From: Candidatus Bathyarchaeota archaeon
GTDB taxonomy: Archaea; Thermoproteota; Bathyarchaeia; Bathyarchaeales; Bathycorpusculaceae
Direction: 5' to 3'
NCBI GenBank assembly: GCA_963720565.1
Contig: CAVRFW010000010.1
Coordinates: 1 to 59,949, forward strand
Length of the DNA: 59,949 nucleotides
Shown here piece after piece: positions 39,001 to 48,000 of the stretch. The position numbers are program-made. How positions within the stretch are numbered: position 1 is the stretch's first letter; the number at the start of each line of letters is the position of its first letter.

Positions 39001-42000
39001 GTTATTTTTAGGCTACTGAGAACCTCTTTTGGGTTTGAAAGTTGTTATTTTTTCTTTATTGTGCGTTTTAGTGTGTTCTTGGGTTTTTTGTCGCTGCAAA
39101 AATGGTTACCTATTTTTCCATGGTAATAGTGTGGTCAGGGAACAAAAAGGAGGAATATGATGGAAATAAAATTGAAGAAAAAATTGCTTCCAAACCTCAC
39201 GTTGCCAGCGAATAACCATAGGGAGGTTAACACGAGAATCGCCGGAGTGACTCCTGGGAATGTTGCTGGGATTTCTGTGCAGCCAGTCGCTTACGAGCGT
39301 TCCAGAGAGTATTTGGCTCACATCGCTGAGGTCGAAATCAGACGTTCACTAGCTTTAGCTGATGCTTATCGACTATCGCTGCGTTAGGAGGTGATTTTGT
39401 GCCGAAATTTTTGGTTGTCCACCCGATACCAACACCCGTAACGATTGAAGAAGCTACTCCTGTGGCTAAGGCGGCGAAGGCGAATTCGACGGTTGATGCT
39501 TACTGGGTCCAGAGTTGGGCTCAGCTCAACGAAGAGGGCAAGATTGTCAAGATTTTATGCCAGTGGAATGGTGCAAGTGCTGGGGCGGTCGTTGAGGTTC
39601 TCAAGAAGGTTCCAGCCCCGTCTGAAGGGCCTTATCCAATGGTTGCAGTGGACTCGGAAGACTATAGATGAAGCGTTACGATTGGGGTGCTTAGGTAATT
39701 CCCCTTTTTTTCTATGGTGTCCGCTTCTACGAAAGATCGAGGACTCATAACATGGGCTTTAGCCTACCACAATTCGTTATCGAAAAATGATATATGAAGA
39801 GAAAAACAATTGTCATTTTGGTGGATGAGTGATTTTTAATGGTCAAGTTGGTGGCTATTAATGGCAGTGCAAGAATGGAGAAAGGCAATACTGCGAGAGT
39901 TTTGGAGCACTTTCTAGATGGCGTTAGAGATGCTGGGGCTCTCGTTGAGCTTTTTTATGCGAAGCGTTTGAACGTCGAGCCATGCACAGCTGAGTTTTAC
40001 TGTTGGAATGAGAAGCTAGGTCAGTGTTATCAAGAGGATAATATGCAGTTGCTCTATCCCAAGCTGCGGGAGGCGGATATTCTCGTGTTGGCGACGCCGG
40101 TGTACATTCCGTTGCCTGGGGAAATGCAGAATCTGATAAACAGGCTTTGCCCATTAATCAATCCGGTTTTGTCGTGGCGGGGAGGTCGTACTCGAGCCCG
40201 GTTTCACGATGACGTCAAGATTCGCAAGATAGTTTTATTGTCTGTTTGCGGTTGGTGGGAGATAGGCAACTTCGGCACGGTAGTTCGAATTGCCGAGGAG
40301 CTTGCGAAGGACGTTGACGTGGATTTTGTTGGTCCTATTTTGCGTCCCCATGCGTATCTTATGGCTCAAAACAGCAAGAAGGCTCAGGAAGTTGTTGTGG
40401 CGTTGAGGGAGGCTGGTTACCTGCTTGTGACGAAGGGGGTAGTTTCCAGGAATGTGCTGGACACGATTAGTCAGCCTTTGATGTCCGAAGAAGAGTACAG
40501 AAGAGACCTTAGCGACGACTATGAGAGAGTTAAGAACAAATTAGGCGATTAAGGCAATTGTCAGAATAGGCTGGCATTCACGTAGAAGATAGAGATCGCG
40601 GGAGACATCTCTATTAGTCCCAGGTTCAAATCCCGCTATTTGTCGAGTTCTTTTCCTACACTCCAAGCCTTAGCGAATTTCTTACCAAGACTCCAGTAGC
40701 TCCTATCATTCATCACAAACAGGATGGGCTGCACCTTATCAAAATCGACCACTCCATCCGTTAGAACGAGTTCGTCACAGTAAGTGGCTACAACTTTGCC
40801 TATGAATGCGTCATGATTTGGAAAATCAATGGTTTTCACTAGTTCGCATTCTATGTTTATGGTGCATTCTTCAATCATTGGGGCAGTTTTGAGCTTGCCA
40901 AAAAAAGTCTTGAACATTGCCGCTTTGTTTTGGTCTACTCCTGAAACTAAGCCGCAGTAATCGGTTTCCTTAACTTGTTTTGTTGAGGGAATGTTGATGC
41001 TGAAGGTCTTGTTTGCCTTGATACCATTGTTAGTGTAATGGGTTTTGTTCATTCCTAGTGAGACGGAGTTAGGCTCCATTATGCCAACATGTGCTATTGT
41101 CGTGTAGTTTGGTTTATGATTCACTAATGCTCCAACTAGTACGGTTGGCAAGGGATACAGGCAGTTTTTTGCTCCAAGTTCAATTTTCATCTTTAGGAAC
41201 ACCTAGGAATTGCGTTTTTGCTTCAGGTGAAGATTATTGTTTCTAGTAGATAAACAAGTAACTGCAGTCTACCAAACGCACCGATATAGAAAAAGAGGGA
41301 AATGCGGGAGACATCGCCACCTGATTGGGGTTCAAGATTTATATCGAAACAATATATTTCGTGCTTTGGGTGTCTGTATGCCCTATACACCTATTCACTG
41401 GAGCATAGCTTATCTAGCGAGAGAAATCAGACCCAGTTTGAGCCTTCCAGCTCTGATTGTAAGCACCGTGGTTCCTGACTTAGAAATTCCATTCATCTAC
41501 ATTATTACTGGCGGTCAACTTGGTAGGCTTGTTCTGCACAGCTTGTTGGGAGCAATTACACTTGCGACTTTGTTGTCGGTGTTCTTGACAGTTTTCGTCT
41601 ATTCCCCAGTAGTTTCGCATCTTTTTAAGGTGGACTCCAAAATTGTCAAAGGCAGGTGTCGGTTCTCCTGGAGTCTATTTGCGGTTTGTCTGTTGGGGAG
41701 TCTTTCTCACGTGCTAATCGACTCGTTGCATCATGAGTATAATCCCTTGCTGTTTCCGTTTACTTATGACTCTTTTGACGCTTTGGTATTCATGCATAAC
41801 TGGACCCTGGCGTCTGTGATTATTCCGTTGTCGTTTTTGGCTCTGCTGGTTTTGTTTGTCGCCAAAGAGGTTAGGCACGGAACTAAGAACATCTGGGTGA
41901 GGTTGCTTGTCGAATGAATTTGGATGCAAAGACAGTTAGTGCTTCTTCAAAGAGAAAAAAAGTGGATTGTGTGCAGCAACTATCGAAGTGAGTAGTTTTT

Positions 42001-45000: not shown

Positions 45001-48000
45001 AAGGTATCCGAGAGAAACTTATAACGAGATTATTTCCAATCTGATAAAAATGGCAAAGGATTCCCGAAACAGAAGGCAATACGACGAATTCATTCACACA
45101 ATACAGCAGGCAAAGATGAAGGAATTATGGGATAACGAGGAAGATGAGGCTTGGGAAAATGTTTAGAGCCGGAGACGTTGTCGTTGCGAGCGTGCAGTTC
45201 ACAGATACTGCAGAAGTGAAGACTAGACCGGCGGTAGTTCTGTTCGAAGAGCTAGGAAACGTCGTGATCGCTGGCGTGACCAGCAACCTCAAGATGAAAG
45301 GAATACCCTTGACCAAGAGTGAGGGCGCTATAAAAGAAAGCGTAATAAAACTAAACTACATCTTTACCATCTCCAACGAAATGGTATCCAAAGTCATTTT
45401 TCACTTAAGCAAAGAAAAGAAGCGCCTCATATTTGAGGAACTTGGCAGAAGACTTGATGGACTCAAAGCATAGCTTTCATGTTTTGTCTTTTTCAGGTGA
45501 AAACACGTCTAACAAGGATAGCAAGATGTAGGCTGAGACTGGGCAGTTCAAGAAAGCAAGCAAGACAGGATAACCTTGAAGACAAATAAGAAAAAGCGGA
45601 TTGCGGGAGACATCTCTGCTTGGTTCAAGTTGGCATGTGCCCCATCCAAACATTGAGAGAATTTTTCTTGATTTTTTCATTACTCGTTCGTCGACGAATC
45701 GTCTAATTGTTTCTTTCTCGAAGGTAATTCGGACTTTAAGGATAGGACTTCGTTTCTCCTCTTTTTCCTCCAACTACCTGAAGTGCTTTTCTAACGATTC
45801 ATAGACTTGATTGGCGCAAGCCCACCGCCCAAGAGTTTAATCTGAGATAGCATCGATTATTATCAGAGTGGAGTCGCGACAACCAATAGGTCCCAAATGG
45901 TCTTTTTCCAAGTGAGTATCTAGCGCGCTAACCCGTCCGTCGGGTTTCTTGATAATTGTGAAGAGCACGTTGGCGCAGTGTTTTATATTGCTTTTTTGAT
46001 ACAAGTAGCGGGAGCAACTGGTCTGTTTGAATGACCCAACGAAGGTTTCTTGCCCAAGCTGTGGAAACAAGACAGATGCAGAGAACGGGTTATGCTCTGT
46101 CTGCGGAAAAGCCCTGAATGCTGAACCTGAAAACGAAAAAGTGCTTCTATCTTTCGGTCCCATGGACGTCAGCGTGTGCTTCAAGCGTCCGGGCTTCTTT
46201 GTTCTGACACAGCGAAACGACACGAAAATCGTTCTGACAAACAAACGAATTTACGGCCTCTCCTCGTTCTCAGGCAAGCCCCGCTTCGATGTCCCATACA
46301 ACGCGATAACCTCCAAGGAGAACACCAAGTACAATTTCTTCAGAGTCCTTTACCTTCAATACCTGGACGACAAAAACGCCAAGGAAGTGTCCATAATGGG
46401 CGGACCAACAAACTACAGCAACGTTGCTCGTGCCCACGAATTGATTCCAGCGCCAGGATAAATTGATTATTTTGGCTTGTGAACTTTTTGAGCACGACTT
46501 TTTTTAACAATTTTTTAGTGAGCGTTCGCTATAGGGTGAATCCTGTGTGGTATGGGTAGAATAGCATTAGGATGATTATTATGATGGTTGCGGCGAAGAT
46601 TACGGCGGTTAGGGTTTTGTCGTGCCGTGTCATTTTTAGTTCTTCGTAGCTTACTTTTTGTACTTTTGCGCCGAAGCCTCTTGTTTCCATGGCTAGGGCG
46701 AGGATTCGGGCTCGTTTTATGATGTTGACTATGAGTGTGGTTAGTGTTGTGGTGAGGCCTTCGAAGATGCTTTTCGGGTTTAGTTTTTTGATTTTTAGGC
46801 CTCTTGCTTGTTGGGCGTTCATTATGGTGTAGTATTCTTCCATTACGACTGGGACGAATCGTAGGGCGGTCATGGCTACGAATGTGATTTTGACTGGGAT
46901 GCCTATTTTGCTTAGGGATAGGAGGATTTCTTTGGGTTTGGTTGTCATTATCATTAGGTTGCTTGAGAAGAGGGCTATGGAGAACTTGAGGGTTGTGACG
47001 GTGCCCCAGACTAGGCCTTCTTGAGCTATTACGATGCCTCTTCCCCCGGTCAACCATAGTAGGAAGGGTCCGAGGATAGGCATTGATTCTGCTTGTTCGG
47101 GCCGGAAAATCCATGTCAAGATGGTGATGGTGCCTTCGGGGTGCTGGTAGAATCCGAAGTAGAAGAACATTCCGAAGAAGAAGAATGAAAGTGAGCTGAA
47201 TAAGCCTATGATGAGTATGGCTCGGTATCGGGATCGGGGTATTCGCGCAAGAAGGTAAAGACTCAGCACGAACGCGAATACGAATAGAAGGGTTACGATG
47301 CCGTTTGCGGCTATGGCGAGCAACAGCACGGGGAGCAGCATTAGCAGTTTTACCTGGGGATTTAGTCTGTGGATTGGAGAGTTGGAGTCGACGTACTGGA
47401 ATAGCCCTCGAAACATGCCTTTATCCTCCGGCCTCTTCTCTGTTCTGCAGTGCTTTGCTGATTTCGTCCACCGTTAACATGGGCGGTAGTCCTAGTAGTT
47501 TGCTTAGTCTGACGGAGCCAGGAGGTTCAAGGCTTGCTGAATGCAGAACCTCTTCTTGGGATAGGACCATGTGTGGTTCGCCGTCTAGGAGGATTTTTCC
47601 GTTGTTGATTATGACTACTCTGCTTGCGTGTTCGGCTGCGAAGTTTATGTCGTGAGTGATGACGACTATGGCGAGACCCTCTTTACTCATGCCTTTGAGC
47701 ATGCTTACGAGTGAGTTGATTCGGCTTGAGTCTTGTCCGAGCGTGGGCTCGTCGAGTATGAGCACTTTAGGCTTCATGGATAAGACAGAGGCAACGGCTA
47801 AGCCGATTTTTTGTCCTCTGCTCAGCGTCTGTGGGTCACGGTCCCTGAACTGTTCAAGCTGCATAAGTCTAAGGGTGTTCTCAACCCTGGCCTCTGTCTC
47901 TTCTTTGCTGAGGTTCAGGTGTCGAGGACCGAATGCGATTTCGTCTTTCACAGTCCTGCAGAAAAGCTGGTTATCCGGGTTTTGGAATGTGTAGCCCACG

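Follow-up and report, generated by a model that had tools for sequence, protein, structure and literature searches.

Integrative elements that target tRNA genes in archaea were reportedly described by She et al. in 2001. CIMEs and ICE/IME accretion in Streptococcus and other bacteria involve att-bounded, recombinase-less elements that pile up in tandem at a tRNA gene or another att site, and CIMEs are in principle movable by a neighbor's integrase. According to excerpts of a review (PMC8371274) and of a Thaumarchaeota survey (PMC6563490), archaeal tRNA-gene-targeting elements with tyrosine integrases show tandem integration, integrase-less remnants, and "gene capture," and the integrase-bearing cryptic elements of Thaumarchaeota span 2.6–98 kb (PMC6563490). 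Excerpts of further papers report integrons in Archaea (10.1101/2022.02.06.479319/PMC9668308) and SSV-type "suicidal" integrases, which have their attachment site within the integrase gene (PMC7253208).

Here we analyzed a 59,949-nt stretch of contig C10 of a Candidatus Bathyarchaeota genome (the window), in which a repeat separates small gene units. We consider it likely that this repeat is an attachment site left by, or carried on, Bathyarchaeia integrative elements inserted at tRNA 3′ ends by tyrosine integrases, and that the island in the window is a stack of such small units. The repeat is built of a conserved core of ~35 nt and a variable tail, and conservation across 221 aligned copies is higher in the core than in the tails. 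The core consensus runs from an A-run through GGGG and a T-rich spacer to GCGGGAGA-YR-TCTCCA, and includes a 12-bp palindrome (GGAGA-YR-TCTCC). The genome-wide survey's note had described an invariant core with A-run and GGGG; this holds in general, but copy 1 (40598) has neither. Seven copies, all on the plus strand, lie between 40598 and 45650. With up to three mismatches, a 16-nt core (GCGGGAGACATCTCCA) matches the window six times, always on the plus strand (40598, 41304, 43091, 44174, 44797, and 45603), against 0.35 matches expected from dinucleotide shuffles, none of 100 of which reached six. The seventh copy (core 42452, four mismatches) was recovered by profile search, nhmmer giving seven matches in the window (E 1.9e-17 to 1.3e-06) and a next match at E 1.2. 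These searches confirm the seven same-strand copies reported earlier. A putative eighth, degenerate copy spotted by eye near 41953 was not significant (E 36). Across the genome, a profile of 15 copies found 25 places at E ≤ 0.013, the seed copies among them matching by construction, which bears out the earlier count of at least 23.

The island spans 40564–45939 and consists of units of 0.6–1.7 kb with one or two genes and no integrase. Copy 1 (40598–40639, +; core start 40598) carries the T-arm-like GGTTCAAATCCCGC in a tail that adjoins the 3′ end of a flavin reductase-like gene (PF01613, Flavin_Reduct; 40636–41202, −). Copy 2 (41288–41352, +; core 41304) is flanked by divergently transcribed genes; the listed ORF of a YdjM/DUF4184-like membrane protein (41237–41917, +) overlaps it, so the true start of this gene is probably an ATG near 41379. 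An 82-aa ORF with no Pfam family above threshold (42035–42283, −) precedes copy 3 (42433–42501, +; core 42452), whose tail is not tRNA-like and is of a type that recurs at C11:12836 and C11:13932. The next unit gene encodes a winged-helix protein (Pfam PF14947, HTH_45; 42619–42948, −) and has a paralog at C9:258061–258506 (82% DNA identity), the homology ending where the A-run of copy 4 (43074–43131, +; core 43091; T-arm in tail) starts. Beyond this copy lies a SAM-dependent methyltransferase gene (Pfam; 43168–44022, −), followed by copy 5 (44155–44203, +; core 44174) and a CMD/AhpD-like gene (Pfam; 44211–44603, −). Copy 6 (44778–44846, +; core 44797) is the best kept, its tail being a tRNA-Pro(GGG) 3′ end that includes CCA, with two mismatches in 25 nt. 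The accompanying two-gene unit (44795–45473, +; Pfam) pairs a DUF7557 antitoxin-like gene, which probably starts near 44938, with a PemK/MazF-like toxin gene (45144–45473). Copy 7 (45587–45650, +; core 45603) has a decayed tail, and the last, truncated unit is a gene-3′-end remnant (45671–45743, −) with 86% DNA identity to 32389–32461, from a gene resembling the 1204-aa gene at 32387–36001.

This island is absent from a related population, as had been reported: in a 1367-nt contig of run X4 (~92% alike), 40563 is separated from 45940 by 14 letters of different sequence. The analysis also supports the earlier description of the repeat as intergenic, held in one orientation within arrays, and separating small gene units. 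As in CIMEs, att-bounded elements without their own recombinase are stacked in tandem; unlike CIMEs, they occur in a different domain of life, lack conjugation or mobilization genes, and form far smaller units, and their mobilization in trans is putative. The window has no tRNA gene and no integrase, contig C10 has no integrase match, and neither end of the island bears a recognizable attB or tRNA remnant; each of these observations speaks against an attachment-site origin. All nine integrase matches in this genome are partial and lie on contigs other than C10.

A minority of copies have a tRNA gene 3′ end as their tail, set at constant spacing from the core; Pro, Leu, Ser, and Cys types and one type ending CCCGCCCGCCA occur at this fixed distance. 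A T-loop motif occurs in 46 of 221 copies (at +26 or +27 in 40 of the 46) and is absent from the tail in 175, and a tRNA origin of the tail is assumed for the majority of copies. Of the seven window copies, only that at 44797 clearly shows the tRNA-like tail noted previously, its local score for tRNA-Pro(GGG) being 22, with shuffles reaching 13 at most. A T-arm persists in the tails at 40598 (score 15) and 43091 (score 13), and the other four score at or near shuffle level. Both the single clear window tail and the many copies lacking a T-loop sit uneasily with an attachment site.

In other genomes, the core marks the distal end of elements whose other end is an intact tRNA gene and which encode a tyrosine integrase. 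At locus L257, a tRNA-Pro(GGG) gene is followed by an integrase reading towards it and, 5.4 kb further, by a core whose tail has 32 nt identical to the tRNA 3′ end plus 7 nt beyond CCA. Locus L278 has the same layout with tRNA-Ser and 24 identical nt in the tail. Locus L104 runs from tRNA-Leu(CAG) through an integrase, a core, and a toxin-antitoxin pair to a core with a tRNA-Leu tail; its inner core lacks a tRNA tail, which simple serial integration at a tRNA would not predict. In complete elements, end-to-end identity is confined to the tRNA part, the tRNA end having no core. An attP-like junction, in which an inward-reading integrase has its 3′ end directly behind core and tail, was found at L271, L247, and viral contig L288, and in this genome at C9:500797–501078. 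The C-terminal end of the integrase lies at +103 to +109 on the tail side in five core copies, and in four the N-terminal end lies 40–190 nt from the A-run. An integrase or a fragment of one lies within 4 kb of 23 of the 220 distinct core copies in loci retrieved solely for their core.

Because the core stands at the far end of tRNA-integrase elements, the tRNA 3′ end recurs exactly in its tail, and core and tail precede inward-reading integrase 3′ ends, we read the repeat as a probable site of attR or attP type. The earlier objection that no recombinase is linked to the repeat thus falls, since core and tail are the distal site of tRNA-integrase elements in other Bathyarchaeia genomes and metagenome contigs. 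What had been taken for a decayed tail would be a crossover region copied from the target tRNA, given the exact repeats of tRNA 3′ ends in integrase-bearing elements (32 nt at L257, 24 nt at L278). The proposed site would have two parts: a conserved element-side arm, the core, and, seven bases past it, a crossover region copying the target tRNA from the T-arm to a few bases past CCA. In the free element, the order would be core, crossover region, and remainder of the element. Recombination with a tRNA gene would rebuild the tRNA at one end (attL) and leave core and tRNA tail at the other (attR), and re-use of the site would stack elements head to tail, each closed by core and tail, which would account for same-strand arrays. 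The island at 40564–45939 would then comprise seven or eight stacked, very small integrase-free units of one or two genes, brought in by tRNA-site recombination. It stands away from any tRNA gene, its tails are mostly decayed, and, with nothing but integrase fragments left in this genome, it is probably inactive here. Copies as close as 64–250 nt with nothing between them also occur, a spacing that the stacking of circular elements does not explain. Circular forms, excision junctions, and RNA were likewise not seen, which also weighs against this reading.

The constant distance from core to tRNA part and, in some copies, an NCCA end and the possible pairing of core GCGGG with acceptor-strand CCCGC would also suit a small RNA gene or tRNA-like RNA, such as a 3′ tRNA half or minihelix transcribed from the A-run region. 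Such an origin is very improbable: the tail matches whichever tRNA gene stands at the other end of the element, a signature of recombination and not of a gene family, and most tails have no T-loop. There is no conserved promoter-like signal on either flank of the 221 aligned copies, nor any Rfam match to the array at E ≤ 5 (elsewhere, one chance snoRNA match was obtained). The palindrome, the sole helix tested, shows only two compensatory changes in 221 copies and so does not covary, in agreement with the earlier analysis.

T-runs are termination signals in archaea, and on the reverse strand the repeat reads as a hairpin, CCCC, and a T-run. The genome-wide survey's note had weighed a recombination site against a conserved terminator or 3′-UTR module that travels with the genes. 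In five window units, a minus-strand gene has its stop codon 0–130 nt from the tail, so that its transcripts would enter the T-run. However, among 81 copies with two called neighbors (crude ORF calls), 19 lie between divergent, 24 between convergent, and 38 between tandem genes, a split close to random intergenic placement. Copies within arrays hold one strand regardless of gene direction, neighboring copies sharing a strand in 57 cases versus 6. The arrangement is reversed at STAND-KaiC genes, which adjoin the A-run side on the same strand. A scan with a terminator consensus found 6 matches versus 6.6 expected, no excess, with only one inside a repeat. The non-covarying palindrome argues against a terminator as well, and exact tRNA 3′ ends and integrase junctions would be left unexplained. 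We therefore find a terminator module unsupported and extremely unlikely, and favor a recombination site, in which the T-run on the other strand of the core may end transcription of the inward-reading gene.

A palindrome with a YR center, conserved in sequence without covariation and located beside an A-tract, could instead be bound by a host transcription factor or chromatin protein, as a regulatory site merely tending to lie in variable regions. Yet neither distance nor orientation relative to gene starts is fixed among the copies, which form same-strand arrays, keep a constant spacing from tRNA 3′ ends, and join integrase genes in stereotyped ways. Core counts also vary very unevenly, from 0 to 13, between related genomes. 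Regulatory binding by a host protein is thus most improbable. If the repeat is an attachment site, the palindromic core may serve as a protein-binding arm site, for the N-terminal part of the integrase or an accessory factor, and not as the crossover point itself.

As in integrons, same-strand repeats set apart small cassettes whose accessory genes are unrelated, one cassette, a toxin-antitoxin pair, is reversed, and the array is missing from a related population. "Integron-like" stands only as an analogy; membership among integrons is not supported, as the repeat copies show no attC-type fold or covariation, no integron-type (IntI/attI/Pc) platform lies beside the array, and the window holds no integrase. 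Also unlike in integrons, tRNA 3′ ends are carried in the repeats, the integrases linked to them are of the tRNA-site kind, and each unit comes with an upstream region of its own (90–175 nt). The units might still be strict integron-like cassettes, each promoter-bearing and with its own core, moved in trans by an integrase encoded elsewhere; crossover would fall in or at the edge of the core, for instance at the YR center of the palindrome, and the tRNA tail would be one of several right-hand flanks. The one or two genes per unit, the missing integrase, and the better conservation of the core than of the tails would suit this, as would the L104 toxin-antitoxin unit, set between a tail-less core and a core with a tRNA tail. 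The segment 44157–44718 (repeat, CMD/AhpD gene, and 115 nt upstream) recurs at C7:12960–13523 with 96% identity, the mismatch rate rising from ~2% in the gene through 11% in the tail to 23% in the core. This pattern fits the attachment-site reading, with a junction near the core/tail border, and the far greater divergence of the core would suit cassettes as well. One-sided flank homology between copies exists for either side of the core, as if the flanks were exchanged independently, which would suit either reading. Of the order's 151 genomes, 137 have the integrase family, which supports the attachment-site reading and also means that a trans-acting helper would usually be at hand. Nevertheless, end identity in complete elements is restricted to the tRNA part, with no core at the tRNA end, which makes crossover within the core impossible for integration at tRNA genes. 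No cassette was found to recur identically in two contexts with core-internal junctions on both sides, and the within-array joints in runs X1 and X2 have sides of just 23 and 21 letters. Palindrome arms of 5 bp are, moreover, short for the core site of a tyrosine recombinase. We thus regard strict cassettes with crossover at the core as unlikely.

The core occurs in 54 of 151 genomes of the order, versus two control matches, and beyond the order it is nearly restricted to Bathyarchaeia records. The linked integrases are just 34–35% identical (three sequences, alignment A2), yet the arm is conserved. The core clearly does not go with the integrase family as a whole: among 80 metagenome integrase loci, many on short contigs, just five have it within the fetched stretch, a low count for an attachment site. 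Two arrangements in this genome place the core beyond a tRNA gene: on C5, tRNA-Leu is followed by a PBP gene, a STAND-KaiC gene, and a core with a decayed Leu-like tail, and on C1, tRNA-Arg by a PBP gene, a TPR-KaiC gene, and a core with a decayed Arg/Pro-like tail.

Compared with the archaeal tRNA-site elements covered by the excerpts, those studied here similarly have direct repeats of a tRNA 3′ end at both ends and an integrase gene beside the tRNA, and in both, re-use of the site yields arrays and integrated elements without an integrase occur. Unlike in those elements, an arm of ~35 nt by the crossover region is kept class-wide whatever tRNA is targeted, and the window array is distant from any tRNA gene. 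As in the excerpted account of SSV-type integrases, part of the linked family shows overlap between a tRNA gene and the beginning of the integrase ORF (5 of 80 loci, and L043 and L136); unlike there, most linked integrases are adjacent to the tRNA gene, convergent with it or upstream, and remain intact on integration. Units of 0.6–1.7 kb fall far below the 2.6–98 kb of the integrase-bearing cryptic elements in the excerpted survey (PMC6563490), a size that also weighs against an attachment-site reading. The repeat had been called so far undescribed, and our literature search found no paper describing the motif; tandem tRNA-site integration in archaea, by contrast, is already in print in the excerpted sources (PMC8371274; PMC6563490). 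What appears to be new is the class-wide arm motif, together with units as small as these.

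The repeat reported in the genome-wide survey's note is real. Six matches to its 16-nt core GCGGGAGACATCTCCA at ≤3 mismatches occur in the 59.9-kb window, all within 40598-45650; shuffled sequence gives an expectation of 0.35, and six matches were reached in 0 of 100 shuffles. An nhmmer profile search of the window returned seven matches (E 1.9e-17 to 1.3e-06; next match E 1.2), including a copy at 42452 that has four mismatches to the core, and all seven lie on the + strand within 40598-45650. A degenerate eighth copy near 41953, spotted by eye, was not significant in the nhmmer search. 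Across the 13 contigs of the genome (2.09 Mb), a profile built from 15 copies identified 25 places at E ≤ 0.013. This profile search overlooked two more tRNA-Pro-like 3' ends, at C4:44930 and C4:59484, with CGGATAA after each and a badly decayed core before it. Pfam matches bore out the names that the note had given to the genes of the array.

To derive the anatomy of the repeat, 221 distinct copies taken from the genome under study and its relatives were aligned on the core. In the conserved part, an A-run and GGGG are followed by 4-5 nt of T-rich spacer and then by GCGGGAGA-NN-TCTCCA, mostly with a C or T next. Upstream of the A-run no conservation was found across the aligned copies, and thus no promoter-like signal; downstream, a weak T-arm signal is the sole conservation. 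Only the ~35-nt core is common to the copies, the flanks differ on both sides and no inverted ends were seen, as assessed with MITEs and tRNA-derived SINEs in mind. Insertions of 7-17 nt separate GCGGG from the palindromic part of the core in some copies (L049:675, L049:3274, L052:7786, L019:477, and L124:4426), and one such insertion makes a second small palindrome, GGAATATTCC. Inspection also revealed alternating purine-pyrimidine runs (GCATGCAC, GCGCGTGCGCAC) ~10-60 nt from many copies in several genomes, either beside the A-run or after the tail (loci L014, L015, L022, L027, L043, L045, L049-L051, L057, L060, and others).

The central dinucleotide of the core is YR (CA in 81 copies, TA in 60, TG in 34, and CG in 33), so the core contains a 12-bp palindrome, GGAGA-YR-TCTCC. 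This dyad consists of 5+5 bp around a 2-nt centre, and changes in its arms are one-sided. At its most variable pair (positions 5/12), 36 of the 221 copies are broken and 2 are compensated, a ratio affected by the choice of copies for their likeness to the consensus, which works against double changes. The palindrome is kept as sequence, not as a helix, and we infer that the core is an arm site for a dimeric protein.

The note had described the array as integron-like, which holds as an analogy and no further. An integron attC site is an imperfect palindrome that folds single-stranded with paired R and L boxes; the repeat has no such fold, only the short dyad with its two compensatory changes, and by eye we saw nothing in it resembling the R-box consensus. 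Nor is the array headed by an integron integrase with attI: contig C10, on which the window lies, contains no match to PF00589 or to the integrase family linked to the repeat in other genomes. Readings of the repeat as an RNA (a C/D-box RNA, a split or permuted tRNA, or a tRNA minihelix) are countered by the missing promoter signal, by a search of Rfam that gave no relevant match at E ≤ 5, by the palindrome, the one helix tested for covariation and found to have none, and by tails that follow the neighbouring tRNA. A serine recombinase acting at the 2-nt centre was also considered, and the genome has no Resolvase match. The dyad and G-string resemble an origin-recognition box, and the polarity does not fit.

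The note had also allowed for a terminator or 3'-UTR module that travels with the genes. The T-run opposite the A-run of the core may end an inward-reading gene. Orientation counts, strand pairing, and a terminator scan all speak against the module: based on crude ORF calls, the genes on either side of a copy are divergent in 19 of 81 cases, convergent in 24 and tandem in 38, which is close to random placement between genes; arrays keep one strand, with neighbouring copies on the same strand in 57 cases vs 6 over all loci; and the scan showed no excess of terminators. The spacing of neighbouring copies ranges from 64 nt to several kb, and some copies are 64-250 nt apart with nothing between them.

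The variable tails that follow the core resemble the 3' ends of tRNA genes in a minority of copies. A T-loop motif follows the core in 46 of 221 copies, beginning at +26 or +27 in 40 of the 46, and in 22 copies there is also a CCA at the right distance. Several tRNAs are represented by their 3' ends in the tails (Pro, Leu, Ser, Cys, and a type ending CCCGCCCGCCA); most tails have no recognisable tRNA likeness. The only clearly tRNA-like tail in the window belongs to copy 6 (44797), which shares 23 of 25 nt with tRNA-Pro(GGG), CCA included. A T-arm is still present in copies 1 and 4, and the remaining tails of the window are not above shuffles. Pro-type tails are followed by CG(G)ATAA and the resident tRNA-Pro gene by CATTCC, which indicates that elements brought these tails in and that the resident gene was not their source. 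On its reverse strand the tail is also like a primer-binding site, as in a retro-element, and no RVT_1 match exists in the genome (89% complete). Some cores lie close to tRNA genes that their tails do not match. In this genome, one copy (C9:495607-495761) follows an intact tRNA-Gln at a distance of 15 nt, and in two loci from elsewhere a core is found 180 nt after a tRNA-Gln (L139) or ~25 nt before a tRNA-Ala (L062).

The note had raised the objection that no recombinase is linked to the repeat, and loci from other genomes remove it. Using tyrosine integrases near a few copies as a start, we fetched 80 relatives from metagenome contigs. A tRNA gene abuts the integrase gene in 23 of these 80 loci, overlapping the integrase start in 5, convergent just past its 3' end in 14, and downstream on the same strand in 4; the core is also present in 5 of the 80. 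In locus L257, the integrase reads towards a tRNA-Pro(GGG) gene and a core lies 5.4 kb further, its tail identical to the 3' end of that tRNA over 32 nt, including 7 nt past the CCA. The layout is the same in L278 with a tRNA-Ser, the tail being identical over 24 nt. Locus L104 is ordered as tRNA-Leu(CAG), integrase, core, toxin-antitoxin pair, and a second core; the inner core has no tail and the outer one has a tRNA-Leu tail with an indel. In all three loci the far end repeats the 3' end of the tRNA at the near end, and the two ends form an attL/attR pair of the textbook kind, in which the core lies on the element's side of attR; the window array has no such pair. The tRNA end of complete elements lacks the core, so the tail must be where crossover with tRNA genes takes place.

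Three further loci (L271, L247, and the viral contig L288) have a core and tail whose immediate neighbour is an inward-reading integrase, with its 3' end next to the tail. This is the arrangement expected on a free element or at the joint of two stacked elements. All six integrases match PF00589, and in these other genomes the tyrosine integrase is located inside the element, beside the att site. In loci retrieved solely on the basis of the core, 23 of 220 copies have a whole or fragmentary integrase ≤4 kb away; in five of these its C-terminal end is at +103 to +109, and in four its N-terminal end is 40-190 nt from the A-run. These positions define the smallest such element as one inward-reading gene between two att sites. 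Five units of the window array have this layout, with another gene in place of the integrase. Based on this evidence, the repeat is probably an integrase attachment site, composed of an arm and a tRNA-derived crossover region.

In many integrases of the linked family, encoded in open frames of 380-490 aa (L053, L289, and others of the order), the N-terminus is extended by a part with a CxxC...CxxC zinc-ribbon-like motif. This part may bind the palindromic arm (GGAGAYRTCTCC). The genes near copies are highly varied: clustering of 840 neighbouring ORFs, in search of a recurrent gene that might encode a dedicated enzyme, gave few clusters, the largest being STAND-KaiC (12), and apart from these, the integrase (6 ORFs) and one syntenic locus, no family recurs. 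A small GIY-YIG nuclease-like gene (weak match, E 3.8e-4) reads away from the A-run at a distance of ~40 nt in three loci only, including L021:1002-1466.

In the genome under study, repeats of a near-end tRNA at the far end of an element are present in decayed form only. Two 5-kb modules, each with a periplasmic-binding-protein (PBP) gene and a STAND/TPR-KaiC gene, directly follow tRNA-Leu(TAG) on C5 and tRNA-Arg(GCG) on C1, and at the end of each stands a core whose decayed tail is of the matching kind. The integrase family is represented in this 89% complete genome by nine partial matches, none of them an intact gene, and one partial match directly follows the copy at C9:500797. Fragments, some with stop codons, adjoin tRNA-Arg (C5:65336-65742), tRNA-His (C13:120329-121111), tRNA-Pro(GGG) (C8:8055-8417), and a second tRNA-Arg(GCG) (C1:3709-4042). 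The two tRNA-Arg(GCG) genes differ at a few positions. The PBP gene after the tRNA-Arg on C1 (4156-5494) consists of two overlapping ORFs that match the halves of Peripla_BP_6, and is probably frameshifted.

The absence of the array from a related population, as claimed in the note, is borne out by a contig (~92% alike) from sequencing run X4 that joins 40563 to 45940 with 14 other letters between. The first position is 11 nt past the FMN-reductase stop codon and the second ~90 nt short of a zinc-ribbon gene, so the island spans 40564-45939. Occupied and empty sites in related populations were found for the whole island only; joints around single units within the array are too weak in runs X1 (44684 to 45601) and X2 (43118 to 44782), where the sides measure 23 and 21 letters at 90% likeness. 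We found no tRNA gene or integrase in the window and saw no attB at the island ends. At the island edge, after the last repeat, a 73-nt remnant (45671-45743) is 86% identical to 32389-32461 and resembles the 3' end of a 1204-aa gene on the minus strand (32387-36001) that has weak TPR matches only. The CMD/AhpD unit of the array recurs at C7:12960-13523. The duplicates differ at ~2% of positions in the gene and the 115 nt upstream; the figure rises to 11% for the tail and 23% for the core, a gradient that fits a junction near the border of core and tail. Mapping crossovers from the end-points of homology between copies fails because the shared core lengthens every alignment.

The 23-nt core (≤3 mismatches) was detected in 54 of 151 sampled genomes of the order, at 0-13 per genome, and a reversed control gave 2 matches. 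A scan with the exact pattern over one genome per prokaryote species found at least 123 stretches; among the matches listed, 77 of 80 titles are Bathyarchaeia/Bathyarchaeota, Thermoproteota or unnamed archaeon, and the other three are bins labelled Cloacimonadota, Actinomycetota, and Ohtaekwangia. The core is present on four viral contigs. Since the linked integrase family occurs in 137 of the 151 genomes, its co-occurrence with the core across genomes is uninformative.

Reviews describe elements integrated in archaeal genomes that may be without an integrase or stand in tandem at one locus (PMC8371274), and tyrosine-recombinase elements build arrays by site re-use, with integrase-bearing cryptic elements of Thaumarchaeota ranging from 2.6 to 98 kb (PMC6563490). 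The sections seen of two papers on Bathyarchaeia touch on integrases only in passing (PMC10848311, PMC11697101). No description of the motif was found in a search of the literature that covered texts outside the supplements.

It is possible, if rather doubtful, that the repeat marks a class-wide gene-cassette system of Bathyarchaeia, an archaeal counterpart of integrons that arose from tRNA-site integration. Such cassettes would be very small promoter-bearing units, each with a minimal attP formed by the palindromic arm and a tRNA 3' end, and integrases of resident or incoming elements, acting in trans, would shift them and pile them up into arrays, both at tRNA genes and at secondary sites. 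The arm would then be a common handle for many integrases of different tRNA specificity, or for one shared accessory protein. The small units may have been moved in trans or may be leftovers of larger elements.

Of the uncultured archaea in sediments, Bathyarchaeia belong to the most abundant groups, and little is known of their gene exchange. The core offers a short and easily searched marker of integration sites, with which islands, decayed elements, and their cargo could be located across hundreds of genomes assembled from metagenomes; toxin-antitoxin pairs, methyltransferases, redox enzymes, and STAND-KaiC modules were among the cargo observed in this analysis. Conservation of the arm does not depend on the tRNA targeted, which points to a common DNA-binding partner. 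Such a partner could be identified and put to use in integration tools for Bathyarchaeia. If the small units moved in trans, they would represent a second, independent invention of cassette arrays.
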